Assembly: GCA_965214265.1 (NCBI GenBank)
Contig: CBDCBK010000007.1
Location: 439 to 64,438, forward strand
Direction of reading: 5' to 3'
Length of the DNA: 64,000 bases
Origin: Acidimicrobiia bacterium
GTDB lineage: Bacteria; Actinomycetota; Acidimicrobiia; Spongiisociales; ZC4RG35
Below the pieces are notes generated by a model. That model worked only from the letters and a program-made list of their open reading frames with translations. It had not been told where the DNA came from and did no database searches. The position numbers and the translations under genes are program-made. Shown in pieces: positions 1 to 29,868 of this stretch (position 1 is its first letter; each line of letters starts with the position of its first letter).

Positions 1-3000
1 CTTTTCCGAACCGGTGACGGGCTTCAGCGCCAGCGACATCGAGACGGGTCAGGATCCTGCCTGCGTGGACGATCAGAACAACACGGTCTTCTGCGACCCG
101 GGGATTGGGGCCTTGCAGACGACCGACGACCGGGTCTTCACCACCACGGTGACCCCGAGGACCGACCGTGTGGCCCACAGCTACACGTTGACGATGACGG
201 TTCCGGGAGGCGCCGTGAGGTCATCAGTGGGAAGCAAGTCGAGCGAGGAGCCTGAGGAGCCGCTGGAGGTCCGGGTGGCGCCGCCGGGAGTGGAGGAGCC
301 GATTTCGTCTCTGGGTCTAACGGCCAGCGGTGGGAACGGAACAGTCAGGCTGAGCTGGAACCGGCCAACGGATAACGGAGGCTCAGCCATCATCCGCTAC
401 GAGGTTCGGTATCAAGCGGTGGGAGAGACGTGGAGCGAGTGGGAGAAGGTGGGAGCGGGGACGCGTGGGGTGACGGTGGAGAACCTGATCAACGGCCGGG
501 AATACATCTTCGAGGTGCGTGCGGTCAATGCGTTGGGGAAGGGTGGAGCTGAAACGGTGCAGGCCACCCCGGAGCGGCGGATTGCGCCTCCGCCCCCGCC
601 CCGCGGAGGTGGGGGCGGCGGTGGTGGCCTGCTGTTTCCACCGGAGGCGCCGCTGGGGCTGATGGCGATGCCCGGGGACGGAGCGGTGCGGCTGGAGTGG
701 AGCCCGCCCGAGAGCGACGGGGGCACCCCGATCCTGCGCTATGAGTACCGTTTGAAGGAGGGGCGGGGAGCGTTCGGGGAGTGGACCGCCATCGAAGACA
801 GCGCCCCCGGTGAGGTCAACGCCACCGGGTATACGGTGGGTGAGCTTGGCAACGGGACGGTCTATGTCTTTGAGCTGCGAGCGGTCAACCTGGTGGGCGG
901 GGGGCCGGAATCGGAGGCGGTGGAGGCGGTGATGGGGCTGGATCGGGCCTATTGGTCGAACTTCGGTGCGGAGGATCTCCAAGGGGGTGAGGCCAGTCTG
1001 GAGGGAGGGCCGTTTGGGGAAACCCCGCAGAGTCTGAGGCTGCGGTTTGGAGCGGGGCTGCGGTTTGAGGAGAGCAAGCTGGACGGAGACGGGGAGGTGA
1101 CCGGGACCCGGTCGGGGAGCTACGGGTACCGCTACACCAGCCGGACGACGGGGGAGTTGAGGTTGGACTACGACGGGGGAGAGTCCTGTGAGCTGCGGTT
1201 GACCTTCAGGGGAGTGGGAGCGGGCAGCTACAGCTATCATCGCTGCGGCGGGGTGTTGGGGGGACAGGGGAGCTTCGAGTTGACGGGGCTGAACCGGGGG
1301 CCGGAGATTACCAGCGCAGGGGCGTATGAGGTAGCGGAGAACACGGTGCGGGTAGGACGGCTGGAGGCGGTGGACGGGGACGATGAGATCGGGGGATACG
1401 GGATAGCGGGGGGAGCGGACGGGGGGCTGTTTGAGGTGGTTGAGGAGACGGGGGAGTTGATGTTCCGGGAGGCACCGGACTACGAGATTCCGGGAGATGT
1501 GGAGAGCGAGGAACCTCAAAGCAGAGCAGCAGACAACGAATACATTGTAGTGGTAGAGGTGAGCAGCGGTGAGGGGGAGAGGGAGCGGAGGGAGAGCCGT
1601 GCGATCCGTGTGCGGGTGGCTGACGAGGAGGAGCCGCCGGAGATCACCAGCCTGGGCCCGTTTGAGGTGGTGGAGAACCGGACGAGGGTGGGGCAACTGG
1701 AGGCAGTAGACCAGGACAAGCAGGACGAGATTACGGAGTACGGGATAGCGGGGGGAGCGGACGGAGCACTGTTTGCGGTGGAAGCGGAGACGGGGGAGCT
1801 GAGGTTCCGGGAGGCGCCGGACTACGAGACTCCGGGGGATGTAGCCAGTGAGGATCCCCAGAGCGGAGCAGGGGACAACGAATACATCGTGGTGGTAGAG
1901 GTGAGGAGCGGTGAGGGAGAGAGGGAGCGGAAGGGTAGGCGTGTGATCCGGGTGCGGGTGAGTGACGAGGAGGAACCGCCGGGGGCGCCGGGGGCACCGG
2001 CGGTGACGGCGGAGGGCAGCGACAGTTTGAAGGCAAGCTGGAGAGAGCCGGAGAACCGAGGGCCTGAGATCGTGGACTATGAGGTGCGCTACCGGGAGGC
2101 AGGCGAGGCAGGTTACAGCGATGGGGGACACGAGGGGACGGGTTTGGAGGTGAGGCTGTCGGGGCTCGAGGAGGGGACGGCCTACCAGGTGCAGGTGAGG
2201 GCGGTCAACCAGGAGGGGATCAGTGAATGGTCGGAGCCGGGGGAAGGGCGGACGGACACGGAGGAACCGGACCCGGACCCGGACGATCCATCGGACTTCA
2301 CCGAGGAAGAGCTTGAGGGCAGGCGGCTGACCCTGCGGCTGGAGGGTGAGGAGGGGACTGCCGGAAGCCTTGAGCTGCGGTTTGGGGAGAGCAACCGGTT
2401 CGAGCAGACCGAGTCGGGCGGTCAGCAAGCTGCGACCCGGAGCGAGGGCGCCGCCTCCCGATCGGGCGCCTACACCTATGAGAAGACGGGCACTCGCATG
2501 GGGACGGTGAGGCTGGCCTACGATGACGGAAGTTCCTGTGAAGTGTTACTTGCCTTCACCGAGTCGGGAGCAGGCACGTTCAGTTATGACTGCGGCGGGG
2601 GGACCCGGCCGAAGGGAGCTTCCGGCTGACGACGGGGTCGTTGTTCGTTCCGGTGATTCTGTCGGCGGCAGGTCAGAACCAGTCCTTTTTCACCTCGGAA
2701 CTGACGCTGACCAACCGGGGGGACGAGGAGGTAAAGCTGGACTACAGCTACACGGCCCACAGGGGAGGGGGCAGCGGGAAGACTTCTGATGTGCTTGCAC
2801 CCGGCATGCAAAAGATCGAGACCGACGCCCTGGGCTATCTACAGAGCCTGGGGATACCGATTCCCGAAACGGGCAACCGGATCGGGACGCTGAGGGTGGA
2901 GGCGCGGCTGGGGTCCGAGGTAGAGGCGGTGGTGCGGACGACGACGCTGGTGCCTGACGGGAGGGCGGGGCTGGCCTATCTGGGGGTAACGGAGGAGGAG

Positions 3001-4098
3001 GGCTTTACCGAGGCAGTCTACCTGTGCGGGCTGCGGCAGAACAGCCGTGACCGCTCCAACGTGGCCTTCCAGAACATGGGAGCAGAGGAAGAGGGTGCGA
3101 TCACTGTGAGGACGACGGTGTATTCGGGAGAGTCGACAGACACCAATGCCCGGGTGCTTGAGGACGTGACGCTTGAGCCGGGAGAGTTTCACCAGTACTC
3201 GGGGCTGCTGGGAGTGCTGGAGAGCGTGGAGGGCAACCGCCAGGGCTACGTCAAGGTGGAGCGTGTGGAAGGAACCGCTCCCTTCTACGCCTACGGGGTG
3301 ATCAACGACCAGGCCAACTCGGACGGCTCGTTTGTCTTTCCGGTAGCGGCGAGTTGGCTGGAGGGAAGGATGGGGCAGACCCTGCCGGTGATTGTGGAGA
3401 CGAGCGCGTTCACCAGCGAGCTGACGGTGACGAACTTCTCAGGGGAGGCCAGGAGGCTGGATTTCCAGTTTGTGGCCGAGGGAATCGAGGCTGCGGGCAA
3501 CACCGCCGCCTTCAGCATGAGGCTGGAAGCCGGCCGGCAGGAGATCATTGCGGAGGTGGTGGAGGAGCTGCGCCAGCGGGGGGTAGCGGGGCTGGGGTCG
3601 ACACGGGGCTTCTACGCGGGACCCTTGTTCGTGGTGGCGGAAGGCGGAGACATGAGCGGCATCGTGATCGGGGCCAGGACGGGCTCGGAAGGAGGGGGCG
3701 GACAGTACAGCGTCTTCTACAACGCGGTGCCGGAAGGTGCGGCCTTCACCGGGGAGGCCTGGGTGGATGGGTTGCAGCAGGACGAGGAGAACCGCAGCAA
3801 CCTGGCGCTGGTCAACACCGGGGAGGTGGACGGGAGCGCCAGCGTCTTCCATCTGGAGATCTACGACGGCGAGACAGGGTTGCTGGCCGAGACGGTGGTA
3901 ACCAAGCCGATCCCCGTCCGGCGCTGGCATCAGATCAACGGCATTCTGGACAGCTACGCCCCGGAGACCCGGCAGGGGTATATCCGGATCGAGAAGGTGT
4001 CCGGGGAGAACCCCTTCCTGGCCTACGGGGTGGTCAACGACGGCGGGGCTCCGGGAGAGCGCAGCGGCGACGGAGCCTACCTGCCCGCGAGGGAGTAG
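1..4098 (+). pseudogene. Copy A of the giant FN3/cadherin-like surface protein. It is 5'-partial (continues off-window) and its frame is broken once (ORFs 14..2629 and 2641..4098).
   Basis: Positions 1-4098 are colinear with 15338-19415 of the intact copy. Translation shows FN3 ('LSWNRPTDNGGSAIIRYEVRYQ'), cadherin-like units ('PEITS..GIAGGADG..F....TGEL.FREAPDYE') and the C-terminal double module. The frame breaks at the G run 2597-2602, where copy B has one more nt (GAGGGGG). This could be a real pseudogene or an indel error. Confidence 0.8.
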
Positions 4099-4359
4099 GC
4101 GCTCTGCTCGGCACTCAATGCCATTTCCAGACGTTCGATTGGAATGGGAGCTTCATCGATAATCCATCCAGTTTGGGGAAAGCGGAAAATGGACACTGTT
4201 TACCACTTTTCCACAGGCGCTTGGACTAATGAAATCAAGGTATCTGTCGGTCTACAAACCGGACAGATCACCAGTCATAAAAACCGGTCAACTCGACATG
4301 TCATTGAAACCGGTTCAAAGCCGCCGTTGCCTCAAGCCCGGATCAGCAGTTCTTTTTAT

Positions 4360-4774
4360 ATGTCGGTTCACCACTGTCCGGTTAAACTTTCAAGACGTTA
4401 GTGTAACAGGTTTAATTCCATCAGGTTACCAGTGGAAATGAGTGTTTTCGACTTTAACTCGCTCCAAGATTTCGGCCATACTTTCTCCGCTACCCAGAAG
4501 CGCATGGTCTTCTTGACCAACAACTTTACCCTTCCGGCCCTGACTATTGCCCATCTTTACAAGTGCCGCTGGCGTGTGGAGTTGTTCTTCAAATGGATCA
4601 AACAATATCTGCGGATCAAGGCTTTCTTTGGAACCTCCCAGAACGCGGTCAAGACCCAGATCTGGATCGCCATCAGCGTTTACTTACTCGTGGTTATCCT
4701 CAAAAGGGAATTGAAAATCGACCGAAGTTTCGGCGAAATCCTGCAAATTCTCAGCATCACCTTCTTCGGAAAAG
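4360..4774 (+). mobile_element. Left part of an IS4-family derivative: TSD, left TIR and a transposase C-terminal fragment. The right part was lost in a 287-bp deletion.
   Basis: 'ATGTCGGTT' (4360-4368) is followed by the TIR 'CACCACTGTCCGGTTA' (4369-4384). The ORF from 4432 encodes 'LPALTIAHLYKCRWRVELFFKWIKQYLRIKAFFGTSQNAVKTQIWIAISVYLL', a typical IS4/DDE_Tnp_1 C-terminus. Apart from one mismatch it is identical to 19677-20091. Confidence 0.7.
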
Positions 4775-4896
4775 ACAAGCCAGGGCGCGCCCAGCACCGT
4801 CTGTCCCCTGAAGACTCCAAACAAAGCGCCGCAAGATGTCAAAGACAAGCACGTTTCGACCTTATGCTCAGCGACCTGGTGAGAAATGCGGGCTAG
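4775..4896. mobile_element. Truncated MITE: right half with terminal inverted repeat.
   Basis: Matches 20379-20500 of the full MITE. It ends in 'GGTGAGAAATGCGGG' followed by 'CTAG' (4878-4896). Confidence 0.7.
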
Positions 4897-5354
4897 ATAC
4901 GCATCAGAGAGCACCGGGGCCGGTCTTCGCCGCGATCCGATCCTTCGACAAAGAGAATGGACATGATCTCCATCGTGAATGGTAGATTGCGAAGCCTCCA
5001 TCACGTCCTCCGGCCTGCGGCGGGCGCCGAGGGGAATGCGGTTCATCGTGGCGGTCACGGTCGTGCTGCTGTGGTCACTGCTCACGGCCACGGGACAGGG
5101 CGTTGGCCTCTTTTCCGCAGTCGAGCCGGCGGCGCCGAGAAACCGGACGCCAGCAGGCGAGCGTGTCGACGGACCCGGCGCGGGTGGGTGTGGTCGGTCG
5201 ACTTGGCAAACTTCTTGTCGAGTAGAAATTGCTCCAACGTGACTGGCACCCAGTGCGACTTAACACCCTACAGTCGGCGTCGAACACCGGTCTTCCCGCC
5301 AATGAGGCGGAAGTGTCTCGTCTTCCCTACAAAAGCAAAAGCCGACCTTCAACT

Positions 5355-5556
5355 CTAATCCGCATTTCTCACCAGAGTTCACAGATGAGGTCTGAGAGGG
5401 CCTTGGCCTGGTCCAACTCGGGGCGGATGGCGGCTGAAACTGCTCAAGATCGGCGCCCAGATCACCACCTCGGTTGGCCGCATCAAAGTGGCCATGGCTT
5501 CCGGCTGTCCCTACCAGCGGGAGTTCCGTCTGGCCTGGGCTCACCTGCTTCCCTGA
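5355..5556 (+). mobile_element. MITE-type terminal repeat followed by an IS1380-family transposase C-terminal remnant.
   Basis: 'CTAATCCGCATTTCTCACC' sits at 5355-5373. The open frame 5389-5556 reads 'GWRLKLLKIGAQITTSVGRIKVAMASGCPYQREFRLAWAHLLP*'. From memory this resembles the conserved C-terminus of IS1380-family transposases. There is no N-terminal part and no right end. Confidence 0.5.
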
Positions 5557-5882
5557 GACACCACCGAACTGACCGCCCATCCTTGCCCTTGCAACCGGCC
5601 GCTTGAGTAGGGTGGGTCTTATCTGTCCAAGAAATCAGGGGCGGTACATGATGCGCAAAATATGGCGCCCCTATTGGGTCTCAGCAGCTTTACCGGATCG
5701 CTCGAAGTCACCTCCACGGAGCCCATCGCCAGTCTGTCGATCCATTCCGAAGCCGCTCCCGTATTCTCCTCCCTGCCTCCGGGTGAACTGGAAGCTGCCG
5801 CTCCGGTACCCGTGTCTGGACCCTCCTGAAGCGCATTGACGAGGCGGAGGCTGCGTCCTGCCGCTCGGTAGGACGGGGGCCG

Positions 5883-8231
5883 CTAGGCCTCGCCGGGCCG
5901 GGGCATGCGGTAGCCGACCCCGCGCTCGTTGAATATCCAGGTCGGGCGGGCGGCGTCGTCGCCGAGCCTGTTGCGCAGCCGCTTGACGTAGGCGCGCACG
6001 ATCTTGCTGTTGCCGGTGCCGCGTCTGGCCCAGACCTGGCGCAGCAGGGCCTCGTGAGTCAGGACCCGGCCCGCTCCCTGCGCCAGCACACGCAGCAGTT
6101 CGTACTCGGTCGCCGTCAGCGTCACCGGGCGCCCGGCCAGGCTGACCCGGCGCCGGTCGTAGTCGATGGAGAGCTCACCGAGTACGAAGGGGACGGGGTT
6201 CGACCGCCGGCGCAGGGCCGCCCGGATGCGCGCCGTGAGCTCGGTCGGCGAGAACGGCTTGACCACGTAGTCCTCGGCGCCGGCCTCCAGCGCCCGCGCG
6301 ATGGTCTCGTCGCGCCCGTAGCCCGAGATGAAGATGACCGGCAGGTCGGCGAGCTCCGGAACGGTCCGCATCAGCTCGATGCCGTCGGTCCCGGGCAGCA
6401 TCAGGTCGAGCAGGACCAGCCGGGGCTTCTCGGCCCGGATCAAGCGCGACAACTCCTGCGGGTCGCCCGTGACCAGCGGGGCGTAGCCCGCCTCCGCCAG
6501 CGTGTCGCGGAGATGCCGCAGCGTCTCCGGGTCGTCGTCGACCACCAGGATGGGCACCGCTTCCGGTGCTTCGCCCGGCGCGCCGCGGCGGCCCGGGGCG
6601 GGACCGCCGCCGGACTCCTCGGCCACCGGGATCGTGAAGGTGAAGCGCGCGCCGAGGCCGACGCCGCCGCTCTCGGCCCGGATGCGCCCGCCCTGGGCCT
6701 CAACCAGGCCCTTGCAGATGGCGAGTCCCAGCCCGCCTCCGATGCCGCCCTCCCGGTCCCCGGCGGCGGTGTACTTGCGAAACAGCTGGCCGAGATGGTC
6801 CGGCGCGATGCCCCGGCCTTCGTCGGAGACCGCAACCGCCACATGCAGCCCCTCGCGCTCCGCCTCGATCCGGATGGGAGCGGTTTCCGGAGAGTGGCGC
6901 GCGGCGTTGGCGAGCAGGTTGTTGAGCACCTGCACCAGGCGCTGCCGGTCGGCCATGACCCGGGGCAGGCCGGGCGGCAGGTCGATGCGGACGGTGTGCC
7001 GCCCGCCGCCGCTGACGAACGTGCCGCGGGCCTGGTCCACCAGCGCGGCGACCTCCGAGGGCTCGGGCGCGACCGACAGCGTGCCGGCGTCGATGCGCCC
7101 GGCGTCGAGCAGGTCGCCGATCAGGCTGTCCATGCGGTCGGCCTGCTGGTCGATGATGCGGAAGAACTGCGCCACCTCGGCCGGGCCGAAGATACGCGAG
7201 GCGCGGAGCACCGTGGCGGCCGAGCCCTTGATCGAGGTCAGTGGCGCGCGCAGTTCGTGGCTCACCATGCCCAGGAACTCGGCACGCATGCGCTCCAGCT
7301 CCCGAAGCGGCTCCAGGTCCTGCAGGGTGACCACCACTGAGGCGAGCGCTCCGTCAGGGCCGTCCGGGCCGTGGATCGGGGTGGAGTTGATGAGCGTCGT
7401 GACGCTGCGCCCGTCCGGGACCGAGAGCACGATCTCCTCGGCCCGCACCGTCTCGGCGCTGTCCAGCGCCCGCGCCAGCGGCAGCCGGTCGAGCGCGATC
7501 TCGCGCCCGTCCGCGCGCCGGCAGGCGATCGTCTGCAGCAGTTGCTCCGCAGTCTGGCCGGGCAGGCACAGGCCCTGCACGATGCGCCTGGCCTCGCGGT
7601 TGAGCGAGGCCAGGGCGCCGGTCTGCGCATCGAACACCACGACGCCCACCGGCGAGGTCTCGATCAGGGCTTCCAAGCCGGCGCGGGCGCGCTGCTCGGC
7701 GCGGTAGGTGCGCGCGTTGGCGATCGCCGTCGCAGCCTGCGAGGCGAACAGCACCAGGACCTCCTCGTCCTCGTCCGTGAACCCCTCCCCGCCCTCCTTC
7801 TCGACCAGGTAGAAGTTGCCGACATGGACGCCCCGGTGGCGCATCGGCGTGCCCTGGAAGGTCTTCGAGGGCAGACGGTCGGGCGAGAAGCCGAGCGAGC
7901 GGACATAGGCGGGCACGTCGGGGATGCGCAGCGGTCCCGGCAGGTCGCGGAAATACTCGAACAGCCGCGGCCCGTCGGGCCATTCCACCAGCTTGCGGTG
8001 CTCGTCGGCGGTGAAGCCCGAGGTGACGAAGTCCTGGGCGGCGCCGGCCTCGTCGATGGTAGCGATGGCGCCGTAGCGCGCGCCGGTGAGCGCCCGGGCG
8101 CTCTCGACGACCTCATTCAGCACGGTCTCGAGGTCGAGGCTCGCGCTGATGCGCAGGCTCGCCGCGCTCAGCGCGGAGATGCGGGCGCGCAGCGCCGCGT
8201 TCTCGTTCGCCGTCCTGTCTTGATCGGTCAT
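5883..8231 (-). CDS. Cytoplasmic fused two-component protein: GAF-PAS-HisKA-HATPase_c-REC-OmpR/PhoB winged-helix.
   Basis: H-box 'FLGMVSHELRAPLTSI'. ATPase motifs 'NLLANAARHSP', 'DEGRGI', 'GGLGLAICKGLVEAQGG'. Receiver 'ILVVDDDPE...LVLLDLMLPGTDG...KPF'. C-terminal 'TATEYELLRVL....VLTHEALLRQVW......VRAYVKRLRNRL.......GVGYRM'. No TM segment is seen. Confidence 0.9.
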   Translation of the reverse strand: MTDQDRTANENAALRARISALSAASLRISASLDLETVLNEVVESARALTGARYGAIATIDEAGAAQDFVTSGFTADEHRKLVEWPDGPRLFEYFRDLPGPLRIPDVPAYVRSLGFSPDRLPSKTFQGTPMRHRGVHVGNFYLVEKEGGEGFTDEDEEVLVLFASQAATAIANARTYRAEQRARAGLEALIETSPVGVVVFDAQTGALASLNREARRIVQGLCLPGQTAEQLLQTIACRRADGREIALDRLPLARALDSAETVRAEEIVLSVPDGRSVTTLINSTPIHGPDGPDGALASVVVTLQDLEPLRELERMRAEFLGMVSHELRAPLTSIKGSAATVLRASRIFGPAEVAQFFRIIDQQADRMDSLIGDLLDAGRIDAGTLSVAPEPSEVAALVDQARGTFVSGGGRHTVRIDLPPGLPRVMADRQRLVQVLNNLLANAARHSPETAPIRIEAEREGLHVAVAVSDEGRGIAPDHLGQLFRKYTAAGDREGGIGGGLGLAICKGLVEAQGGRIRAESGGVGLGARFTFTIPVAEESGGGPAPGRRGAPGEAPEAVPILVVDDDPETLRHLRDTLAEAGYAPLVTGDPQELSRLIRAEKPRLVLLDLMLPGTDGIELMRTVPELADLPVIFISGYGRDETIARALEAGAEDYVVKPFSPTELTARIRAALRRRSNPVPFVLGELSIDYDRRRVSLAGRPVTLTATEYELLRVLAQGAGRVLTHEALLRQVWARRGTGNSKIVRAYVKRLRNRLGDDAARPTWIFNERGVGYRMPRPGEA

Positions 8232-8327
8232 CCTCTCCCCCTTCCGCCCGCCGCCCGCCGGCGGGTGATTCGGCCCCGGACTGCGGCCGGAGCGGTTCGA
8301 TTCGGTCAGATTCCGTTATATCGCATC

Positions 8328-8381
8328 GTATTCGCGAAGTATTCACGTAACAAACCTAAAAATAACATAACTGTAACATAA
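8328..8381. promoter_or_regulatory. Two pairs of direct repeats with 11-bp phasing in the AT-rich divergent promoter region.
   Basis: GTATTC at 8328 and 8339. TAACATAA at 8363 and 8374. Both pairs are spaced exactly 11 bp apart, within the only AT-rich stretch between the kinase/regulator gene and the giant gene. Confidence 0.4.
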
Positions 8382-18100: not shown

Positions 18101-19415
18101 CGGGACAGCTTCGGAGGTACTGGCTGCAGGCAGGCAGAGGGTGGAGACCGACGCCCTGACCTATTTGAGGGGCTTGGGGGTTCCGATTCCCGAAACGGGC
18201 AACCGGATCGGGACGCTGAGGGTGGAGGCGCGGCTGGGGTCGGAGGTAGAGGCGGTGGTGCGGACGACGACGCTGGTGCCTGACGGGAGGGCGGGGCTGG
18301 CCTACCTGGGGGTGGCGGAGGAGGAGGGCTTTACCGAGGCGGTCTATCTGTGTGGGCTGCGGCAGAACAGCCGGGACCGCTCGAACGTGGCCTTCCAGAA
18401 CATGGGAGCGCCGGAAGCGGGCGAGATCACCCTCAGGACCACGGTGTATTCGGGAGAGGCGGCGGATGGGACTGCACGGGTGCTGGACGACATAGAGCTT
18501 GAGCCGGGAAAGTTTCACCAGTACTCGGGGCTGTTGGGAGTGCTGGGGGTTCCGGCCCAGGGCTACGTCAAGGTGGAGCGGGTGGAGGGGAGAGCGCCTT
18601 TCTACGCCTACGGGGTGATCAACGACCAGGCCAACTCGGACGGGTCGTTTGTGTTTCCGGTGACGGCGGGTTCACTGGAGGGAACAGCGGGCCAGACCCT
18701 GCCGGTGGTGGTGGAGACCAGCGAGTTCAGAAGCGAGCTAACGGTGACGAACTTCTCGGAGGAGCCGAGGAGGCTGGATTTCCAGTTTGTGGCCGAGCAG
18801 ATCGAGGGGGACGACAAGACGGCGAGCTTCAGCATGGAGCTGGAAGCCGGCCAGCAGGAGATCATCCCCGAGGTGGTGGATGAGTTGCGGAGTCAGGGGG
18901 TGGCGGGGCTGGGTAGGGGCAGCCGGGCCTTGGCTGGGGCGGTGTTTGCCACGGCGGTCGAGGGGGACATGAGCGGGATCGTGATCGGGGCCAGGACGGG
19001 CTCTCAAGGAGGGGGCGGACAGTACAGCGTCTTCTACAACGCGGTGCCGGAGGGAGCGGCCTTCACCGGGGAGGCCTGGGTGGATGGGCTGCAGCAGAAC
19101 GAGGAGAACCGCAGCAACCTGGCGCTGGTCAACACCGGGGAGGTGGACGGGAGCGCCAGCGTCTTCCATCTGGAGATCTACGACGGCGAGACAGGGTTGC
19201 TGGCCGAGACGGTGGTGACCAAGCCGATCCCGGCCCGGGGCTGGCATCAGATCAACGGCATTCTGGGCAGCTACGCCCCGGAGACCCGGCAGGGGTATAT
19301 CCGGATCGAGAAGGTGTCCGGGGAGAACCCCTTCCTGGCCTACGGGGTGGTCAACGACGGCGGGGCTCCGGGAGAGCGCAGCGGCGACGGAGCCTACCTG
19401 CCCGCGAGGGAGTAG
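9120..19415 (+). CDS. Copy B (intact) giant secreted multidomain protein: signal peptide, S8 subtilisin-like domain, GLUG repeats, FN3, Ig-like units, cadherin-like units, and a duplicated C-terminal domain.
   Basis: The ORF is open from 8445, but 'MKLPRTAGIMTRAGAGRRWGLLGAVLAIPLLAGPAGAQQ' at 9120 is a clear signal peptide. S8 motifs 'GTAMLEIVHDLAPGA' and 'GSSAAAPHAAAIAALM' lie at ~9650-10900. GLUG-type 'VGGLVG.N.G.I...YATG.VSG' lies at ~11650-12130. The gene runs uninterrupted to the stop at 19413-19415. Confidence 0.9.
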   Translation: MKLPRTAGIMTRAGAGRRWGLLGAVLAIPLLAGPAGAQQASVQAGGELAVKTVRQIEALLAEKAQRTPAQRKVSSQLLSARQDQQYSVARRQAPVEVAADETVMVDILADVTPEVLARIRSLGGTVINSVPKYRGIRARLPLAAVEPLAGLDAVQSIHPADQAVTRKDDTSEGDVAHRANSARTIHGVDGTGIGIGVLSNGVDTLSDRQVSGDLPDWVTVLPRKEGQGSEGTAMLEIVHDLAPGADLYFATASGGGEPLLASNIEALCEAGADVIVDDVYFLREAAFQDGIVAQAVNAAVADGCVVISAGGNGGNKKNGTSGVWEGDYAAGSSLPVNGVSVGVLHDFGGGVVKNRIAQDSPFAYVLQWADPLGASTNDYDLFLVDADDNVLASSTNSQNGRQDPVEIIFSIADNHANDRLLIVKTAGAADRYLRLDANQGRLATSTAGNLFGHSAAASAITVAAVDVRAARRAAGVFNGTESVRRSNSDGPRRIFFEADGMAITPGNFSSTGGRVLQKPDLAAATCVSTSTPGFLRFCGSSAAAPHAAAIAALMLEAAGGPDNVTLADLRTAMTGSALDIEATGVDQDSGAGIVMAPGAVDAVDVPVADRNGAPMVVDGMLPNRTLIGGAGAVTADVANSFSDPENDTLTYTALSNDPDRVAVTRTGSQLRLTPGWPGPAMVAVRATDPSGLSVVGSFSVMVSAGNRDYDLDDDNLIDVGNLAQLDAMRYDLNGDGVLDDASVWRSYYAAGAFAQGAIDMGCPGGCIGYELTADLDFDTDGSGGPDSGDDYWNGGEGWAPIGGAGVQAIGRRLLLENPFSAIFEGNGRTIGNLFIDTDTVVFAGLFGYATSEIRNVGLIDADVTGTVLAAGLAGYNVGEIRASYVTGRVSGVENVGGLVGINVVDGGIRGSYATASVSGDDDVGGLAGDNRGEIIAAYATGRVSGESDVGGLVGNNQSTGEIRAAYATGPVSGDSGVGGLVGTSGGGRVIAGYWDTSTSGRTQSAGGTGRTTALLQSPTGYSGIYGSWNVDLDGDSMTPDPWDFGTSSQYPVLSVDFDGNNSATWQEFGYQLREGPALMTTANETRVNLNWDAVAASHWTPPPVVAYTLYRDDGTAVEALAENTGSRTYADTDFIAGVTYAYQVAAVVAGGEATRNGWLSVRVLDTTAPRLSLVSITSDPGTDGIYAAGDRIVVTAAFDEAVRVTGTPRVKLEVGGEERTADYADGSGTGALVFEYKVAEGESDDDGVSIAADGIDLNRGTITDASDNAAVLTHPAVSPQSGHRVDGVRPVLEDTGGAVVNGSILTLNYDELLDGGSPPPESAFTVRGGDRTRTVSDVGISGSAVILTVDPAVEHGEEGIRVSYRAGSGAILIRDVPGNEAAGLSNEPVTNETPDTTAPTVDSVEISSDPGTDRTYAAGEEIRVTVTFSETVEVTGRPRLMLEVGGGSRTATYGGGSGTAALVFAYEVADGDSDTDGVGVEADSLSGGTIEDTSDNPAELDHDGLAADAGQKVDAVRPELAATDGAVVNGTTLTLTYDEPLDAGSSPSTGDFTVSGGDRARTVAGVRVRGSAVELTLDPGAEHLEAGIRVSYTPGANPIRDVPGNEAESVSQEPVTNETPDTTPPEVSSLAITSNPGGDQIYAAEDEIEVTVRFSETVAVEGTPRLRLRVGSRTRTAGYLRGTDTAALVFGYEVADGDEDTDGVSIEAGRIDRNGGTITDDADNPADLAHEAVAPQAGHKVDGVRPVLVSTAVDGASLTLSYGEALDGGSRPTRGDFTVEVDGSGRSVTGVSISGRVVTLTLNPAVEHGDTGIRVSYTVPTGVGANPIRDEVGNEARGLSSQSVTNTTGAPNTVPEITSPSSISVRENQAVVRRLAARDTDPGDEVTGWEIAGGADQSQFSIASDTGELSFREAPDFEAPGDNEYEVRVEVKSGAGARELEAEQTFTISVTDEREPPDVPEAPTFSGETAESLQVSWSEPDNTGPDITDYDVQYREKGTGRFSGALHEGPGRTLTLSDLNAGTVYEVQVRASNDEGMSDWSNPGEGMTVTPLTVVMASGTEPPVSGPFRVRFSFSEPVTGFSASDIETGQDPACVDDQNNTVFCDPGIGALQTIDDRVFTTTVTPRTDRVAHSYTLTMTVPGGAVRSSVGSKPNEAPEEPLEVRVAPPGAPEPVSSIDLRASSGSGSVRLSWNLPSDSGGSAIIRYEVRYQAVGEAWSEWENVGAGSRGVTVGGLVNGREYVFEVRAVNALGKGGAEAARATPERRIAPPPPPRGGGGGGGGLLFVPEAPLGLMAMPGDGAVRLEWGPPESDGGTPIQRYEYRLKDGREEFGEWTPIADSAPGEVNATGYTVGELDNGTVYVFELRAVNLVGNGRVSEAVEAVMGLDPAYWSNFRAEDLQGGEASLERGPFGGGPQSLRLRFGAGLRFEESELDGEGEVRGTRSGSYGYRYTSRTTGELSLDYDGGESCELRLTFRGEGAGSYSYRCGGVLGGQGSFRMSGLNRAPEITSAGAYEVAENTARVGRVEAVDGDDEIGGYGIAGGADGGLFEVVEETGELMFREAPDYETPGDVASDDPQSGAGDNEYIVVVEVRSGEGERERKGSRAIRVRVADEEEAPEITSLGPFEVVENRTRVGQLEAVDQDKQDEITEYGIAGGADGGLFAVVEETGELMFREAPDYETPGDVASDDPQSGAGDNEYIVVVEVRSGEGERERKGRRAIRVRVADEEEPPAAPGAPVVTAEGSDSLKVSWREPENRGPEIVDYEVRYREGGEEGYSDGGHEGTGLEVRLSGLEEGTVYEVQVRAVNEEGISEWSEPGEGRTDMEEPDPDDPSDFTGEDLEGRRLTLRLEGEEGTAGSLELRFGEGNRFEQIESGGKQAATRSEGVTRSGSYTYEKTGPGRGTVRLDYDDGSSCEIQMSFTETGVGAFAYDCGEGDPGEGSFRLTTGSLFVPVILSSAGQNQSFFTSELTLTNRGEQEVRLDYSYTAERGGGSGTASEVLAAGRQRVETDALTYLRGLGVPIPETGNRIGTLRVEARLGSEVEAVVRTTTLVPDGRAGLAYLGVAEEEGFTEAVYLCGLRQNSRDRSNVAFQNMGAPEAGEITLRTTVYSGEAADGTARVLDDIELEPGKFHQYSGLLGVLGVPAQGYVKVERVEGRAPFYAYGVINDQANSDGSFVFPVTAGSLEGTAGQTLPVVVETSEFRSELTVTNFSEEPRRLDFQFVAEQIEGDDKTASFSMELEAGQQEIIPEVVDELRSQGVAGLGRGSRALAGAVFATAVEGDMSGIVIGARTGSQGGGGQYSVFYNAVPEGAAFTGEAWVDGLQQNEENRSNLALVNTGEVDGSASVFHLEIYDGETGLLAETVVTKPIPARGWHQINGILGSYAPETRQGYIRIEKVSGENPFLAYGVVNDGGAPGERSGDGAYLPARE
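11650..12130 (+). repeat. GLUG-motif repeat block inside copy B.
   Basis: About five successive 'G(E)IR.(S/A)YATG.VSG...VGGL.G' units are visible in translation. Confidence 0.7.
12612..14660 (+). repeat. Three tandem coding units of ~670-700 nt (paired Ig-like domains) inside copy B.
   Basis: Units start at 12612, 13312 and 13980 with 'DTT(A/P)P'. Each contains '..ITSDPG.D.(I/T)YAAG(D/E).I.VT..F.E.V.VTG.PR' followed by 'TL.YDE.LD.GS.P....FTV.GG.R.R.V'. Confidence 0.8.
16632..17310 (+). repeat. Two tandem cadherin-like coding units (~336 nt) inside copy B. The same pair occurs in copies A and C.
   Basis: 'APEITS.G..EV.EN..RVG..EAVD......GYGIAGGADGGLF.VVEETGELMFREAPDYETPGDVASDDPQSGAGDNEYIVVVEVRSGEGERERKG' occurs twice. 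The second halves are nearly identical at DNA level. Confidence 0.8.
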
Positions 19416-19685
19416 GCGCTCTGCTCGGCACTCAATGCCATTTCCAGACGTTCGATTGGAATGGGAGCTTCATCGATAATCCATCCAGTTTGGGGAAAGC
19501 GGAAAATGGACACTGTTTACCACTTTTCCACAGGCGCTTGGACTAATGAAATCAAGGTATCTGTCGGTCTACAAACCGGACAGATCACCAGTCATAAAAA
19601 CCGGTCAACTCGACATGTCATTGAAACCGGTTCAAAGCCGCCGTTGCCTCAAGCCCGGATCAGCAGTTCTTTTTATATGTCGGTT

Positions 19686-20190
19686 CACCACTGTCCGGTT
19701 AAACTTTCAAGACGTTAGTGTAACAGGTTTAATTCCATCAGGTTACCAGTGGAAATGAGTGTTTTCGACTTTAACTCGCTCCAAGATTTCGGCCATACTT
19801 TCTCCGCTACCCAGAAGCGCATGGTCTTCTTGACCAACAACTTTACCCTTCCGGCCCTGACTATTGCCCATCTTTACAAGTGCCGCTGGCGTGTGGAGTT
19901 GTTCTTCAAATGGATCAAACAATATCTGCGGATCAAGGCTTTCTTTGGAACCTCCCAGAACGCGGTCAAGACCCAGATCTGGATCGCCATCAGCGTTTAC
20001 TTACTCGTGGTTATCCTCAAAAGGGAATTGAAAATCGACCGAAGTCTCGGCGAAATCCTGCAAATTCTCAGCATCACCTTCTTCGGAAAAGTCTCTATGG
20101 ATCAAGTACCTAAGAAATTCCATTTGCAACAAGAAGGTTCCGAATCCTGTAAGCAGTTGATATTGTTTGAGTTGTAACCGGACAGTAGTG
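19686..20190 (+). mobile_element. 505-bp internally deleted IS4-family element with both TIRs and a 9-bp target-site duplication.
   Basis: Left TIR 'CACCACTGTCCGGTTA' (19686-19701). Right TIR 'TAACCGGACAGTAGTG' (20175-20190), which pairs with the left TIR at 15 of 16 positions. It is flanked by direct 'ATGTCGGTT' at 19677-19685 and 20191-20199. Only the last ~140 aa of the transposase (19749-20177) remain. Confidence 0.75.
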
Positions 20191-20234
20191 ATGTCGGTTT
20201 AAAAAATTGATAATGTTGTTTCAACTCAAGAGCT

Positions 20235-20500
20235 CTAGCCCGCATTTCTCACCAGGGGGTTGCACTCTTCTCAAGAGTGCAACTTGGCGCAGGATTTTCC
20301 GCTTCAGCGCGTGCTCGTGACCGAAGGGCGTAGCCGGAACACCATTCGAGGGAGCACGTGCGCGCTGAAGCGGAAAAGACAAGCCAGGGCGCGCCCAGCA
20401 CCGTCTGTCCCCTGAAGACTCCAAACAAAGCGCCGCAAGATGTTAAAGACAAGCACGTTTCGACCTTATGCTCAGCGACCTGGTGAGAAATGCGGGCTAG
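20235..20500. mobile_element. MITE (266 bp), full copy.
   Basis: Termini are 'CTAG CCCGCATTTCTCACC' and 'GGTGAGAAATGCGGG CTAG'. There is an internal 11-bp stem 'GTTGCACTCTT ctc AAGAGTGCAAC' and a long imperfect hairpin 'CCGCTTCAGCGCG...CGCGCTGAAGCGG'. No ORF. Confidence 0.8.
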
Positions 20501-20976
20501 ATACGCATCAGAGAGCACCGGGGCCGGTCTTCGCCGCGATCCGATCCTTCGACAAAGAGAATGGACATGATCTCCATCGTGAATGGTAGATTGCGAAGCC
20601 TCCATCACGTCCTCCGGCCTGCGGCGGGCGCCGAGGGGAATGCGGTTCATCGTGGCGGTCACGGTCGTGCTGCTGTGGTCACTGCTCACGGCCACGGGAC
20701 AGGGCGTTGGCCTCTTTTCCGCAGTCGAGCCGGCGGCGCCGAGAAACCGGACGCCAGCAGGCGAGCGTGTCGACGGACCCGGCGCGGGTGGGTGTGGTCG
20801 GTCGACTTGGCAAACTTCTTGTCGAGTAGAAATTGCTCCAACGTGACTGGCACCCAGTGCGACTTAACACCCTACAGTCGGCGTCGAACACCGGTCTTCC
20901 CGCCAATGAGGCGGAAGTGTCTCGTCTTCCCTACAAAAGCAAAAGCCGACCTTCAACTCTAAACCAGGTTTTTCGG

Positions 20977-23900
20977 ATGATTCGTAGTGGGTCGGCCATT
21001 CTATTTGTGTTGAGCATCCTTGTTGCGTCGGTTGGCCCCGGGTTACGGGCGCAGACCTCCGGCGAGGAGACGATCGTCCGTGTCTTCTTCGACGATCTGC
21101 CGACCGGCAGACTCATTGCCGCGAGTTTGGAGCCGATCGAATCCAAGTACGAGAATGGCTACCTGGTGGTGGAGGTCACCGCCGAACAGCTTCAGCGCCT
21201 GCAACAGCGCGGGCTGAGAACGGAACCTGTCAGCGCACAAGAATTGTCGACGATACTTGCCCCACCCCGCGAGATCCGTTCAGCCCAGGCTCCAGAGCAG
21301 GCCACGGCGACGGAAGTGACCGGGATACCTGGTTTCTCATGCTACCGAACCGTCGAGGAGACGTTCGCCGCCGCCGATTCTATGGTTGCGGACAACCCAA
21401 CTTTGGCGAGCTGGGTTGATGTCGGTGATTCGTGGTTGAAGACCGACGCTCAGGGCGGCTATGACATGCGGGTCCTGGTCTTGACGAACCAGAACGTCTC
21501 GGGCACAAAGCCAAAGATGTTCGTCACTTCGTCGATTCACGCCAGAGAATACACGCCGGCGGAGCTGATGACCCGCTTCGCGGAGGACTTGGTCAGCAAA
21601 TACGGTGTCGCTGCCGATGCCACTTGGCTGCTTGACCACCACGAGGTCCACTTGATGCTGCTGGCTAACCCGGACGGCCGCAAACAAGCCGAGGCGGGCC
21701 TGTTGTGGCGCAAGAACGTCAATGAAAACTACTGCGAAGAGGAACCGAACAGTCGAGGCGCGGACCTCAACCGAAACTTCGATTTCATGTGGGACTGCTG
21801 CGATGGTTCGAGTGATGAGCCATGCAGCAATACCTACCACGGCGCTTCTGCGGCTTCGGAACCCGAGGTACTGTCCATCCAGAATTACATTCGGTCGATC
21901 TTTCCCGATCAGCGCGGACCGAATCTCACCGACCCCGCGCCTGATGATGCTACCGGCATCTACCTGGATATCCACAGCACCGGCCAATTGATACTTTACC
22001 CCTATGGGTTCACGGAGACACTGGCCCCCAACAATACACAGCTCCGAACGTTTGCCCGCAAGCTGGCTTTCTTCAATCTGCATACCCCGCAGCAGGCGCT
22101 CGATCTTTACCTCACCGACGGCACGGCAGAGGACTTCGGCTATGGAGGGATGGGCTTGGCGACGTTCACGTACGAGCTCGGCACCAAGTTTTTCGAAGAC
22201 TGCAGCTACTTCGAAGACACGCTGCTTCCGCGCAACATGCCATCGCTCTACTACGCAGCCAAGGTTGCGAGAACTCCCTATATGACGCCCTCGGGCCCCG
22301 ACGTTGTCGATGGCAGCCTCTCGCTGAGCGCGGGAGAATGGCCGTCCGTGGTCGCGGGGGGCACCTCAGTCACGCTCAGAGCCGCCCTGAGCGACAGCCA
22401 GTTCAACAACGACAACGGCGTCGAGCCCACGCAGCCTGTCGTATCCGCGGAGTACTACATCGACACTCCCCCGTGGGTCACGACTCCCGCTCCGGTACCG
22501 TTTACCATGGTGGATGTGGTGGACGCCCCGGGCGATCCGATTGACGGGGATGTTTATGAGGCGTCGATTGACACCACCGGCCTCAATGCCGGCCAGCACA
22601 TCCTTTTCGTGAGGGGGAAGGATTCAGGTCAGAATTGGGGAGCTTTCAGCGCAATCTTTCTGGGAATCGGGATACCGCCGCCACCACCTCCACCACCACC
22701 TCCGCCCCCGCCACCACCTCCGCCACCGCCGCGGGGAGGCGGCGGTGGTGGCCTGCTGTTTCCTCCGCAGGCGCCGCTGGGGCTGATGGCGATGCCCGGG
22801 GAGGGAGCGGTGCAGCTGGAGTGGAGTCCGCCCGAGAGCGACGGGGGCACCCCGATCCTGCGCTATGAGTACCGTTTGAAGGAGGGGAGAGGAGAGTTCG
22901 GCGAGTGGACCCCGATCGCAGACAGCGCTCCCGGCGAGGTCAACGCCTCGGGGTATACGGTCGGGGAGCTGGGAAACGGGACGGTCTATGTCTTTGAGCT
23001 GCGCGCGGTCAACCTGGTGGGCAACGGGCGGGAATCGGAGGCGGTGCAGGTGGTGATGTTGCTGGACCGGGCCTATTGGTCGAACTTCCGGGCGGAGGAT
23101 CTGCAGGGGATCGAGGCCAGTCTGGAGCGGGGGTCGTTTGGGGGAGGACCGCAGAGTCTGAGGCTGCGGTTTGGAGCGGGGCTGCGGTTTGAGGAGAGTG
23201 AGCTGGACGGGGAGGGGGAGGTGAGGGGACCCGGTCGGGGAGCTACGGGTACCGCTACACCAGCCGGACGACGGGGGAGTTGAGTCTGGACTACGACGGG
23301 GGGGAGAGCTGTGAGGTGCGGCTGACCTTCAGGGGAGAGGGAGCGGGCAGCTACAGTTTTCGCTGCGGCGGAAGATTGGGAGGACAGGGGAACTTCCGGA
23401 TGAGCGGGCTGAACCGGGCGCCGGAGATCACCAGAGCAGGGGCGTATGAGGTCGCGGAGAACACGGCGCGGGTAGGACGGATTGAGGCGGTGGACGGGGA
23501 CGATGAGATCGGGGGATACGGGATAGCGGGGGGAGCGGACGGGGCGCTGTTTGCGGTGGAGGCGGAGACGGGGGAGCTGCTGTTCCGGGAGGCGCCGGAC
23601 TACGAGACTCCGGGGGATGTGGAGAGTGACGATCCCCAGAGCGGAGCAGCAGACAACGAATACATCGTGGTGGTAGAGGTGAGGAGCGGAGAGGGGGAGA
23701 GGGAGCGGAAGGGGAGCCGTGCGATCCGGGTGCGGGTGAGTGACGAGGAGGAGTTGCCGGAGATCACCAGCCTGGGCCCGTTTGAGGTCGTGGAGAACCG
23801 GACGAGGGTGGGGCAACTGGAGGCGGTAGACCAGGACAAGCAGGACGAGATTACGGAGTATGGGATAGCCGGAGGAGCGGACGGGGGGCTGTTTGCGGTG

Positions 23901-26210
23901 GAGGAGACGGGGGAGCTGCTGTTCCGGGAGGCGCCGGACTACGAGACTCCGGGGGATGTAGCCAGTGACGACCCCCAGAGCGGAGCGGGGGACAACGAAT
24001 ACATTGTAGTGGTAGAGGTAGGGAGCGGTGAGGGGGAGAGGGAGCGGAAGGGGAGCCGTGCGATCCGGGTGCGGGTGGCTGACGAGGAGGAGCCGCCGGG
24101 GGCGCCGGGGGCGCCGGTGGTGACGGCGGAGGGCAGCGACAGTTTGAAGGTGAGCTGGAGAGAGCCGGAGAACCGAGGGCCTGAGATCGTGGACTATGAG
24201 GTGCGCTACCGGGAGGGTGGCGAGGCAGGTTACAGCGATGGGGGGCACGAGGGGACGGGTCTGGAGGTGAGGCTGTCGGGGCTGAAGGAGGGGACGGCCT
24301 ACCAGGTGCAGGTGAGGGCGGTCAACCAGGAGGGGATCAGTGAATGGTCGGAGCCGGGGGAAGGGAGGACGGACTCGGAGGAACCGGACCCGGACCCGGA
24401 CGATCCGTCGGACTTCACCGGGGAGGACCTGGAGGGCCGGCGGTTGACGTTGCGGAATACGGGTGAGGAGGGAAGCACCGGAAGCCTTGAGCTGCGGTTC
24501 GGCGAGGGCAACCGGTTCGAGCAGATCGAGTCGGTCGGAGAGCAAGCCGCCACCCGGAGCGAGGGGACCTCCCGATCGGGCAGTTACGCCTATCAATGGA
24601 CGGGCCCCCTTATGGGAAGGCTGAGTCTGACCTACGATGACGGGAGTTCCTGTGAAGTGTTATTTACCTTTACCGAGGCAAGAGCGGGCACCTTCGTCTA
24701 TGACTGCGGCAGGGACCCGGGGGAGGGCAGCTTCCGGCTGACGACGGGGTCTGTGTTCGTTCCGGTGATTCTGTCCGCGGCGGGACAGAACCAGTCCTTT
24801 TTCACCTCGGAGTTGACCCTGGCCAACCGGGGAGAGCGGGAGGAGAGGCTCGACTACCTCTACACGGCCCATATCGGTGGGGGCAGCGGGAGGGCCTCGG
24901 AGGTGCTGGCACCCGGCGTGCAGAAGACTGAGACCGACGCCCTGGGCCATTTGAGGGGCTTGGGGATACCGATTCCCGAAACGGGCAACCGGATCGGGAC
25001 GCTGTGGGTGGAGGTGCGTCTGGGGTCTGAGGTAGAGGCGGTGGTGCGGACGACGACGGCGGTGCCTGAGGGAAGGGCGGGGCTGGCCTACCTGGGAGTG
25101 GCGGAGGAAGAGGGCTTTACCGAGGCGGTCTATCTGTGCGGGCTGCGTCAGAACAGCCGGGACCGCTCCAACGTGGCCTTCCAGAACATGGGAGCAGAGG
25201 AAGAGGGTGCGATCACTGTGAGGACGACGGTGTATTCGGGAGAGTCGACAGACACCAATGCCCGAGTCCTGGAAGACGTGACGCTTGAGCCGGGAGAGTT
25301 TCACCAGTACTCGGGGCTGCTGGGAGTGCTGGAGAGCGTGGAGGGCAACCGCCAGGGCTACGTCAAGGTGGAGCGTGTGGAAGGAACCGCTCCCTTCTAC
25401 GCCTACGGGGTGATCAACGACCAGGCCAACTCGGACGGCTCGTTTGTCTTTCCGGTAGCGGCGAGTTGGCTGGAGGGAAGGATGGGGCAGACCCTGCCGG
25501 TGATTGTGGAGACGAGCGCGTTCACCAGCGAGCTGACGGTGACGAACTTCTCAGGGGAGGCCAGGAGGCTGGATTTCCAGTTTGTGGCCGAGGGAATCGA
25601 GGCTGCGGGCAACACCGCCGCCTTCAGCATGAGGCTGGAAGCCGGCCGGCAGGAGATCATTGCGGAGGTGGTGGAGGAGCTGCGCCAGCGGGGGGTAGCG
25701 GGGCTGGGGTCGACACGGGGCTTCTACGCGGGACCCTTGTTCGTGGTGGCGGAAGGCGGAGACATGAGCGGCATCGTGATCGGGGCCAGGACGGGATCGG
25801 AGGGAGGCGGCGGATCCTACAGCGTCTTCTACAACGCGGTGCCGGAGGGAGCGGCCTTCACCGGGGAGGCCTGGGTGGATGGGTTGCAGCAGGACGAGGA
25901 GAACCGCAGCAACCTGGCGCTGGTCAACACCGGGGAGGTGGACGGGAGCGCCAGCGTCTTCCATCTGGAGATCTACGACGGCGAGACAGGGTTGCTGGAG
26001 GAGACCGTCGTCACCAAGCCGATCCCGGCCCGCGGTTGGCATCAGATCAACGGCATTCTGGGCAGCTACGCTCCGGAGACCCGGCAGGGGTATATCCGGA
26101 TCGAGAAGATATCCGGGGAGAACCCCTTCCTGGCCTACGGAGTGGTCAACGACGGCGGCGCCCCGGGAGAGCGCAGCGGCGACGGAGCCTACCTGCCGGC
26201 CCGGGAGTAG
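20977..26210 (+). pseudogene. Copy C: secreted M14 zinc carboxypeptidase head fused to the shared stalk/C-terminal cassette. One frame break (ORFs 20833..23283 and 23280..26210).
   Basis: Signal peptide 'MIRSGSAILFVLSILVASVGPGLRAQ' from the ATG at 20977. M14 motifs 'SSIHAREYT', 'LLANPDGR', 'DLNRNF', 'YLDIHS'. From the Pro/Gly tract (22675-22752) onward it is colinear with copy B. The run GGGG at 23225-23228 is one G shorter than in copy B (GGGGG), which shifts the frame. This may be an indel error. Confidence 0.8.
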
Positions 26211-26237
26211 GGGGCTTACCGATTCAACTTCACGTCA

Positions 26238-26606: not shown

Positions 26607-26689
26607 TAGCCGTGGGCGTAAGCCCATGGAAAGCTCGGCGTTAGAGTTGAGCCGCGTAGGCGGCGGCAGCAATCATCCCTGGTGTTCGA

Positions 26690-28350: not shown

Positions 28351-28351
28351 A

Positions 28352-29818: not shown

Positions 29819-29868
29819 CGCCGTCGCCAGCAGACAGTGCAGAGGGTGTCTTCACGGGGGAGCTCCTC

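Follow-up and report, generated by a model that had tools for sequence, protein, structure and literature searches.

Several described bacterial systems place one shared module on many otherwise different proteins. The cargo of the type IX secretion system (T9SS) of Bacteroidota comprises dozens of exported enzymes and adhesins with Sec signal peptides, unrelated N-terminal parts, often immunoglobulin-like (Ig-like) or FN3 spacers, and one conserved C-terminal domain (CTD). This CTD is a β-sandwich of about 80–100 amino acids (aa), strictly C-terminal, and is removed on export. Cellulosomal enzymes form large shuffled families in which many catalytic heads carry one module that docks to a surface scaffold; this dockerin binds calcium, measures about 70 aa and needs cohesin-bearing scaffoldins. 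Subtilisin-like autotransporters (type Va, such as SphB1 and Ssp) combine a signal peptide and a subtilase-fold head with a conserved domain of several hundred residues at the C-terminus, and their chain closes with a 12-stranded outer-membrane barrel. Very long chains of Ig-like repeats mark SwmB-type proteins and RTX adhesins; the latter are type I secretion substrates that have RTX repeats close to the C-terminus and no Sec signal peptide. Here we describe a 64-kb window (64,000 nt of the contig CBDCBK010000007.1, apparently from a metagenome) with three genes, A, B and C, that share one cassette: a stalk of Ig-like units followed by a terminal domain of about 480 aa, here called the tail.

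Comparison with related genomes showed a large modular protein family, predicted from its translations to be Sec-exported, with an undescribed conserved terminal domain and exchangeable heads. Genes A, B and C are linked members of this family, which appears to belong to Candidatus Versatilivorator and related Acidobacteriota. The N-terminal head of such a protein varies and is an enzyme or a binding repeat of eukaryote-like type; the stalk of Ig-like units (FN3, cadherin, SWM) differs in length from protein to protein, and the conserved 480-aa tail usually comes after a 116-aa module. The translations of B and C begin with Sec-type signal peptides. The first-pass annotation of this DNA had proposed a shared scaffold with interchangeable heads, and this was borne out across the family, far beyond the three genes.

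The tail family and its heads

The scan for tail relatives, made with one genome per species, returned 156 stretches, of which 80 (74 distinct loci) were kept. After removal of overlaps, the fetched loci held 99 distinct tail copies in 13 genome records. The copy numbers per genome are lower bounds and reached at least 28 in one 6.0-Mb genome and at least 19, 18 and 15 in three others. Representatives at 50% identity were searched exhaustively with HMMER, giving 1,459 clusters at E ≤ 0.001 and 749 at E ≤ 1e-30. A second, profile-based protein search returned mostly the same close relatives. Nearly all the tail stretches come from metagenome-assembled genomes (MAGs) that bear the names Candidatus Versatilivorator, Versatilivoraceae, Terriglobia or Acidobacteria; the names of several refer to sponge bins, and that of one to a coral bin. 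Members at about 48–50% identity include proteins of Terriglobia and Thermoanaerobaculia MAGs.

Over their full length, the 482–485-aa tails of the window align with the 95 locus copies and with representatives as distant as 48% identity. Paralogues share a median identity of 69%, and in 168 of the 478 columns conservation reaches at least 95%. Recurring motifs are FVPVILS..G.N.SFFTSELTLTN, GLRQN..DRSNVAFQN, YGVINDQ..SDGSF, GLQQN..NRSNLALVNTG and NDGG.PG.RSGDGAY; conserved clusters of Arg, Asp, Asn and Gln may make up a ligand site. Of 102 tail copies, 95 lie at the very C-terminal end, and the remaining seven follow the signal peptide directly and precede leucine-rich repeats (LRRs). The existence of stand-alone tail genes was considered for these seven short-upstream cases and rejected, as all run on into LRR-containing proteins. 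The 116-aa module lies directly before the tail in 61 of the 90 genes long enough to judge, and its two conserved cysteines may form an extracytoplasmic disulfide.

Tabulation of the N-terminal heads in related genomes, a check suggested in the first-pass annotation, gave at least 15 kinds of head over the 99 gene copies. The individual counts come from Pfam scans of 32 further family genes, a part of the family. These were LRR heads (n = 5), sulfatases (n = 4, one with Spondin_N and LRR), Spondin_N with glucose/sorbosone dehydrogenase (GSDH; n = 3), arylsulfotransferases (ASST; n = 2, one with Calx-beta and one with Spondin_N and cadherin) and TIG heads (n = 2, one with up to 12 units). WD40, reprolysin M12B, collagenase M9 with GEVED, an S8-like head and a PPDK_N-like region were found once each, and several genes showed Ig-like repeats alone in the scanned part. 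Distant representatives carry repeats of the 'DDLGTLGG' type (HAF-like by eye) and, by source annotation, CARDB and a formylglycine-generating enzyme (FGE); the representative P0140 also has an HEFGH zinc-protease motif. The earlier view of the heads as specifically hydrolytic does not hold, since LRR, WD40, TIG and Spondin_N heads are common in the family.

Known families did not account for the tail or the 116-aa module. The tail, whose halves were also searched alone at E ≤ 10, had no Pfam match and no NCBIfam match, and neither its sequence nor a six-sequence tail profile matched a PDB sequence. The 116-aa module had no Pfam match even at E ≤ 10, and a protein search with it returned only short open reading frame (ORF) fragments of the same family. 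By these searches the cassette is not a named adhesin family. Profile searches assigned the heads in the window to an S8 fold and to M14, and neither they nor Foldseek gave the tail a convincing match to a known family.

The internal duplication of the terminal domain noted at first pass was confirmed by hhalign profile comparison. The tail is a duplicated unit of two sub-domains, (a–b)×2, in which the two a sub-domains align at E 2.7e-15 and the two b sub-domains at E 7.6e-27. A mutual relationship of sub-domains a and b and the 116-aa module was unsupported by hhalign. The AlphaFold2 model of the second module plus tail, made from a 38-sequence alignment, is confident, compact and almost wholly β (mean predicted local distance difference test (pLDDT) 84.5, predicted template modelling score (pTM) 0.81). 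The first half modelled alone reached a pLDDT of 75.7, against 84.5 in the full model; one possible reason is that the halves of the tail support each other structurally.

Foldseek searches of module plus tail against the PDB and BFVD gave no convincing whole-length match among the matches listed. The neighbours of the full model were generic β-sandwich arrays (TEP1, complement, PrgB and transglutaminase C-terminal domains), and those of the first half in the PDB were two-lobed β proteins, namely 7S globulins (bicupins), PNGase F, a mushroom lectin (POL lectin) and tandem CBM22; both sets had template modelling (TM) scores of about 0.1–0.25. Small β-barrels (1nc7, 5hal) matched with high probability over about 100–130 aligned columns, which could be the second module or a tail sub-domain. 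No outer-membrane barrel was among the matches listed.

Public gene calls for the family (ENA P0001–P0120 and P0282–P0323) are mostly fragments, with tail ends of 480–830 aa and module pieces of 64–197 aa, even on contigs of 0.2–5 Mb. These giant genes may therefore often have interrupted frames in assemblies, although the word-sharing preselection of the search may favour short proteins.

Three cassette copies and head exchange

Self-BLAST of the window, covering the first 30 kb and the remainder, placed the cassettes at 1–4098 (A), 15338–19415 (B) and 22709–26210 (C), in agreement with the three copies within 26 kb first reported; the other 38 kb held no fourth copy. The DNA identity was 90.5% between A and B (1–4774 and 15338–20091), 91.1% between A and C (585–4099 and 22709–26211) and 88.5% between B and C (15924–19416 and 22711–26211). 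The first estimate of a 3.5-kb cassette fits the part common to all three; A and B share 4.1 kb of coding sequence and a further 0.7 kb downstream. The domain order had been read correctly as FN3, 116-aa module, two cadherin units, FN3, second 116-aa module and tail. The head-side junction of the cassette carries a Pro5-Arg-Gly8 linker in A and B and Pro17-Arg-Gly6 in C, and these low-complexity Pro/Gly linkers are plausible recombination points.

The ratio of non-synonymous to synonymous substitution (dN/dS) between the three copies is about 0.3, in stalk and tail alike and also 3′ of the frameshifts described below, showing purifying selection on the aligned coding sequences. Identity along the cassette is a mosaic: over about 600 nt of the tail, A and C are 97–100% identical to one another, and the identity of each to B is only about 82–85%. 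This pattern points to gene conversion, which in the proposed scheme would keep the cassettes similar. The coding strand of the cassettes is rich in G and A; GC skew is strongly positive (0.22–0.36) and AT skew positive at 1–4000, 14000–19000 and 22000–26000, and both are about zero elsewhere.

Gene B (9120–19415, + strand) is an intact ORF of 3431 aa. Pfam and NCBIfam scans gave the order signal peptide, S8-like head (about 9210–10920), Ig-like unit, GLUG repeats (about 11600–12120), three SWM/Ig-like units (about 12600–14670), cadherin, FN3, Big_12, FN3, the Pro/Gly linker and the cassette, as in the first description of this copy. The Glug match scored 35.5 bits with the region scanned alone, and the three SWM_repeat units scored 124.9 bits with PF13753 and 93 bits with TIGR02059 ('cyanobacterial long protein repeat'). 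The cassette stalk (15972–17966) comprises FN3 (15972–16271), module 1 (16272–16619), two cadherin units (16620 to about 17300), FN3 (about 17310–17585), an acidic linker and module 2 (17619–17966), and the tail (17967–19415) is a 482-aa, all-β, internally duplicated unit, (a–b)(a′–b′).

The head of B matched Peptidase_S8 (PF00082) with 41.2 bits over profile positions 73–288, above the gathering cut-off of 21.8 bits; its paralogue in locus L017 scored 52.1 bits. Alignment with subtilisin BPN′ and three paralogues showed that the position of the catalytic His is Glu in B and in the three paralogues, and that of the catalytic Asp is Asn in B and in the public protein P0121 and Asp in the three paralogues. 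The Ser (GSSAAAPH) and the oxyanion Asn (GGNGGN) are kept, and a more distant copy in locus L073 has the canonical D/H/S triad. P0121, which is taken to come from another assembly, matches B with 95% identity over 3422 aa without gaps. Because P0121 has the same residues, the Asn and Glu are judged not to be sequence errors. The head of B has a subtilase-like fold without the canonical Asp-His-Ser triad, and would be either a Glu-using variant or a non-catalytic domain.

Gene C reads as two ORFs on the + strand. The first (20977–23283) encodes a signal peptide, an M14 domain (about 21373–22185), about 175 aa without a Pfam match, the Pro17-Arg-Gly6 linker (about 22690–22770), FN3 and module 1, which is broken at about 23224. 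The second (23280–26210) encodes the rest of module 1, two cadherin units, FN3, module 2 (about 24400–24752) and the tail (24753–26210). The assignment of this copy to the zinc carboxypeptidases was upheld (Peptidase_M14, PF00246, 159.2 bits; cut-off 21.6 bits). Its head had been described as joined directly to the cassette; the unmatched stretch, which is possibly an Ig-like domain, and the linker lie between them. The nearest PDB relative of the head is carboxypeptidase T (E 3.6e-35), to whose motifs HAREY, DLNRN, DIHS, DLYLTDG and TYEL align. The zinc ligands (HxxE and the second His), the substrate-binding Arg/Asn/Arg, the Tyr motif and the catalytic Glu are all kept, and we take the head to be an active carboxypeptidase on the basis of these residues. 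Of the two unrelated protease heads first proposed, the M14 head thus retains its catalytic residues, whereas the S8-like head lacks the catalytic His and Asp.

Exchange of heads was shown by a syntenic locus. Locus L001 on chromosome OZ253547.1 is collinear with 13330–26214 of the window at 96% identity and with 28528–31416 at 97%, so that the B–C pair is orthologous in the two genomes; the orthologue of gene C there is one uninterrupted ORF. Upstream of 13330, inside the SWM repeats, the L001 gene carries Spondin_N, cadherin and arylsulfotransferase, and the window gene carries the S8-like domain and GLUG. Since a 96%-identical syntenic locus has another head on the same cassette, heads are exchanged between closely related genomes, and the repeats mediate rearrangement and head replacement between them. 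New pairings of head and tail would arise by recombination in the repetitive stalk and the Pro/Gly linkers. The early impression of something more than a simple gene duplication is supported by this swap and by the many heads, although a plain segmental duplication also occurred: 1–5361 copies 15338–20965, including a remnant of an insertion sequence (IS).

On the left, copy A continues beyond the window, which begins within its cassette, as first noted. Its stalk (1–2629, +; 90.5% DNA identity to 15338–19415) consists of Ig-like/FN3 units, a module (about 935–1282), two cadherin units, FN3 and a second module (about 2285–2640), with Pfam fn3 and Cadherin matches. Its tail (2641–4098, +) is a 485-aa ORF in a frame that differs from that of the stalk. 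In the assembly, both A and C fall into two ORFs because of a 1-nt deletion relative to B, which lies near 2597 in A (44 nt before the tail) and near 23224 in C (inside the first 116-aa module). The tail of A is 99.2–99.4% identical to P0049 and P0054, both in frame across the module–tail junction. Considering the dN/dS of about 0.3 and these in-frame, near-identical counterparts, the breaks either arose recently or are errors of the consensus. A recurrent, perhaps programmed slip site before the tail was rejected, as other copies are in frame there and breaks elsewhere sit at other positions.

The duplicated segment downstream of A (4099–5361, +) holds an IS4-family remnant and a 595-bp repeat, and by BLAST its part 4099–4774 corresponds to a second remnant segment downstream of B (19416–20091, +). 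The ORF 4432–4896 is the C-terminal part only of an IS4-family DDE transposase (DDE_Tnp_1, 53.9 bits). The remnant lies directly 3′ of the tails of A and B and was duplicated along with the cassette. The 595-bp repeat (4767–5361, and 20371–20965 just upstream of gene C) is 99.7% identical, far more similar than the flanking cassettes (about 90%). A 79-bp repeat of 91% identity lies 3′ of the tails of B (20237–20315) and C (26241–26319) and may serve both genes as a terminator or regulatory element.

Disrupted members occur elsewhere in the family. In locus L021 (8270–9688) about 1.4 kb is inserted between stalk and tail, a stop codon lies just within the tail of L040 (at about 10071), and the second copies in L016 and L053 are truncated and fused to S8-like fragments. 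The tail family is still undergoing decay and rearrangement.

The neighbourhood data cover the 64-kb window and the 20-kb loci. Divergent from gene B and outside the cassette, 5883–8231 (− strand) encodes by its translation a hybrid sensor histidine kinase, receiver and OmpR-type output in one protein. The region 5354–8563 is 98% identical to one in locus L005 on the same chromosome OZ253547.1, where the kinase adjoins another family member (Spondin_N, sulfatase, LRR); the synteny begins exactly at the end of the 595-bp repeat. By tblastn, kinase paralogues of 62–99% identity occur in ten places across nine other loci that hold a tail gene (L001, L002, L005, L016, L025, L031, L037, L052 and L053). 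Their presence suggests that the hybrid kinase-regulator was co-duplicated with tail genes.

Downstream of gene C lies a tandem non-coding unit of about 830 bp (26692–27522 and 27514–28353, 96.7% identical) without a convincing ORF, Rfam or tRNA match; Rfam and tRNA scans found no RNA gene in the window. The stretch 26215–28527 is an insertion or expansion specific to this genome, because only about 300 bp stand there in L001. Further downstream, on the − strand (28676–35943), are a BNR/sialidase-like gene (28676–29818) and a pair with DUF1501 and PSCyt1/PSCyt2/PSD1 (31072–35943), Pfam families first described in Planctomycetes.

Possible function of the tail

The reading we favour, with a probability of about 0.5, is that the tail is a common attachment base by which the protein is fixed to a surface, with the head held outwards on the stalk. 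It draws on position, conservation and architecture. The many unrelated heads, the high copy numbers, the signal peptides of B and C, the confident tail model and the observed head exchange are counted on the same side. The tail is always at a chain end, C-terminal or N-terminal, which fits an attachment base, and its extreme conservation across unrelated heads suggests one conserved partner or ligand. The end position together with a long stalk and with both enzyme and binding heads fits an attachment base better than a substrate-targeting module or a C-terminal export tag. The tail would anchor the protein most likely to the bacterium's own envelope or glycan coat, and possibly to the sponge matrix. 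Glycan binders among the structural neighbours of the tail (PNGase F, POL lectin, tandem CBM22, bicupins) may be counted weakly for attachment.

Several points weigh against this interpretation. No homology connects the tail to any binding activity, and the structural matches, at the TM scores given above, have probabilities below 0.75. Neither the window nor the one inspected neighbourhood yielded a partner gene, scaffold or sorting machinery. Concerted evolution, not function, could be partly behind the high conservation, and two of the three copies in the window are frame-broken as assembled.

A less probable explanation is that the tail is a sorting or export tag for a dedicated secretion or surface-attachment machinery of Acidobacteriota, like the CTD of the T9SS, and is perhaps cleaved or covalently attached after transport. 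One terminal domain on dozens of unrelated exported proteins per genome is the hallmark of a cargo tag, and very high conservation fits recognition by one machine. The eukaryote-like repeat proteins of sponge symbionts are, moreover, unlikely to use traditional secretion pathways (PMC8163846). However, at 480 aa the tail is five times larger than known cargo tags, and the seven tails that stand N-terminal after the signal peptide, with more than 1000 aa following, are hard to square with a C-terminal export signal. Machinery genes were not identified beside the inspected genes, and Pfam and NCBIfam gave no match to known sorting-domain models. We speculate, with low confidence, that the tail defines a new protein-sorting or surface-attachment system of Acidobacteriota with a logic like that of the T9SS CTD or the exosortase tags. 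If true, this system would deliver the eukaryote-like repeat proteins and matrix-degrading enzymes of sponge symbionts to the host interface and hold them there, and stalk recombination would be a built-in generator of new head/tail pairings.

It is similarly doubtful that the tail is a substrate-targeting module, like a carbohydrate-binding module (CBM), for a single substance abundant in the sponge mesohyl (such as a sulfated glycan or collagen/spongin), with the proteins released and not cell-bound. Animal extracellular matrix is the target of many heads (sulfatases, arylsulfotransferases, M9 collagenase, M12B, M14), lectins and CBM tandems are among the weak fold neighbours, and the fetched relatives with most copies are MAGs, several of them named from sponge or coral bins. 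Long rigid stalks are not needed for such a role, though, and LRR, WD40 and TIG heads are already binders for which targeting would be superfluous. Relatives at about 48–50% identity also occur in Terriglobia and Thermoanaerobaculia MAGs of unstated habitat, and for this reason a sponge-specific ligand cannot be assumed.

That nothing systematic is present, only a recent segmental duplication with three decaying copies, two of them pseudogenes, and a cassette without a common role, is very improbable: the duplication did include non-coding DNA and the IS remnant, and A and C are frameshifted, but the dN/dS past the frameshifts, the intact in-frame counterparts elsewhere and the recurrence of the cassette with many heads in the 99 copies largely refute it. 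Equally remote is a chimeric assembly of metagenome paralogues as the source of the copies, the mosaic stretches or the junction at 5361; the apparent origin of the window from a metagenome contig of about 65 kb, the 100%-identical stretches between A and C and the synteny of OZ253547.1 breaking exactly at the end of the 595-bp repeat would suit it, but the copies differ by 9–12% overall with a dN/dS of about 0.3, the B–C order recurs at 96% in a separate chromosome-level MAG, P0121 matches B end to end and P0049 and P0054 match the A-type tail at 99%, so that the three copies are, on this evidence, not an artefact of one gene.

Comparison with described systems

The likeness to T9SS cargo lies in the overall plan. 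The tail differs from the CTD in its 480 aa, its (a–b)×2 structure and its sometimes N-terminal position, and we know of no T9SS in the phylum of the tail proteins. No Pfam or NCBIfam model of the Por/T9SS CTD matched A, B or C, and no model of the T9SS machinery matched among the scanned ORFs of the window and the 20-kb loci. The shuffling of many heads onto one module resembles the dockerin enzymes; no dockerin or cohesin match was found in any protein scanned, and no scaffold gene was identified. The combination of signal peptide, subtilase-fold head and large terminal domain recalls the subtilisin-like autotransporters, and yet the tail had no Pfam match to the Autotransporter family and the Foldseek matches listed were soluble β-sandwich proteins. 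With SwmB-type proteins, gene B shares the SWM_repeat units; this would be a shared repeat type only and does not place the whole protein in a functional family. RTX adhesins differ from B and C, whose translations open with Sec-type signal peptides and close with the new tail, and Pfam found no RTX/HemolysinCabind match in the cassette genes.

The literature reachable by search made no mention of one undescribed tail linking these protein classes, and searches with the genus, family and species names of the Versatilivorator lineage found no paper. As to the opinion at first pass that no described system has this architecture, the defining features looked for of T9SS cargo, dockerin enzymes and autotransporters were not found, nor was a paper naming the tail.

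The closest parallel in content is provided by surveys of sponge symbionts, in which eukaryote-like repeat proteins, FN3/cadherin proteins and matrix-degrading enzymes are enriched and Acidobacteriota are among the lineages rich in eukaryote-like repeat proteins (PMC8163846). The repertoire is the same (FN3, cadherin, LRR, WD40, TIG, sulfatases, and collagen- and protein-degrading enzymes). Those surveys counted Pfam domains gene by gene. In the family described here, these repeat-protein and enzyme classes carry, within one symbiont lineage, Sec signal peptides and the same undescribed terminal domain, dozens per genome. The tail thereby offers a single experimental handle for localisation, binding-partner and structural work and a sequence marker for mining the 'interface proteome' of Acidobacteriota, and the head exchange between near-identical genomes shows how the repertoire diversifies. 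Compared with the systems above, the tail proteins form, as far as their sequences tell, a modular family of surface or secreted proteins that share one terminal module, itself based on an undescribed domain.

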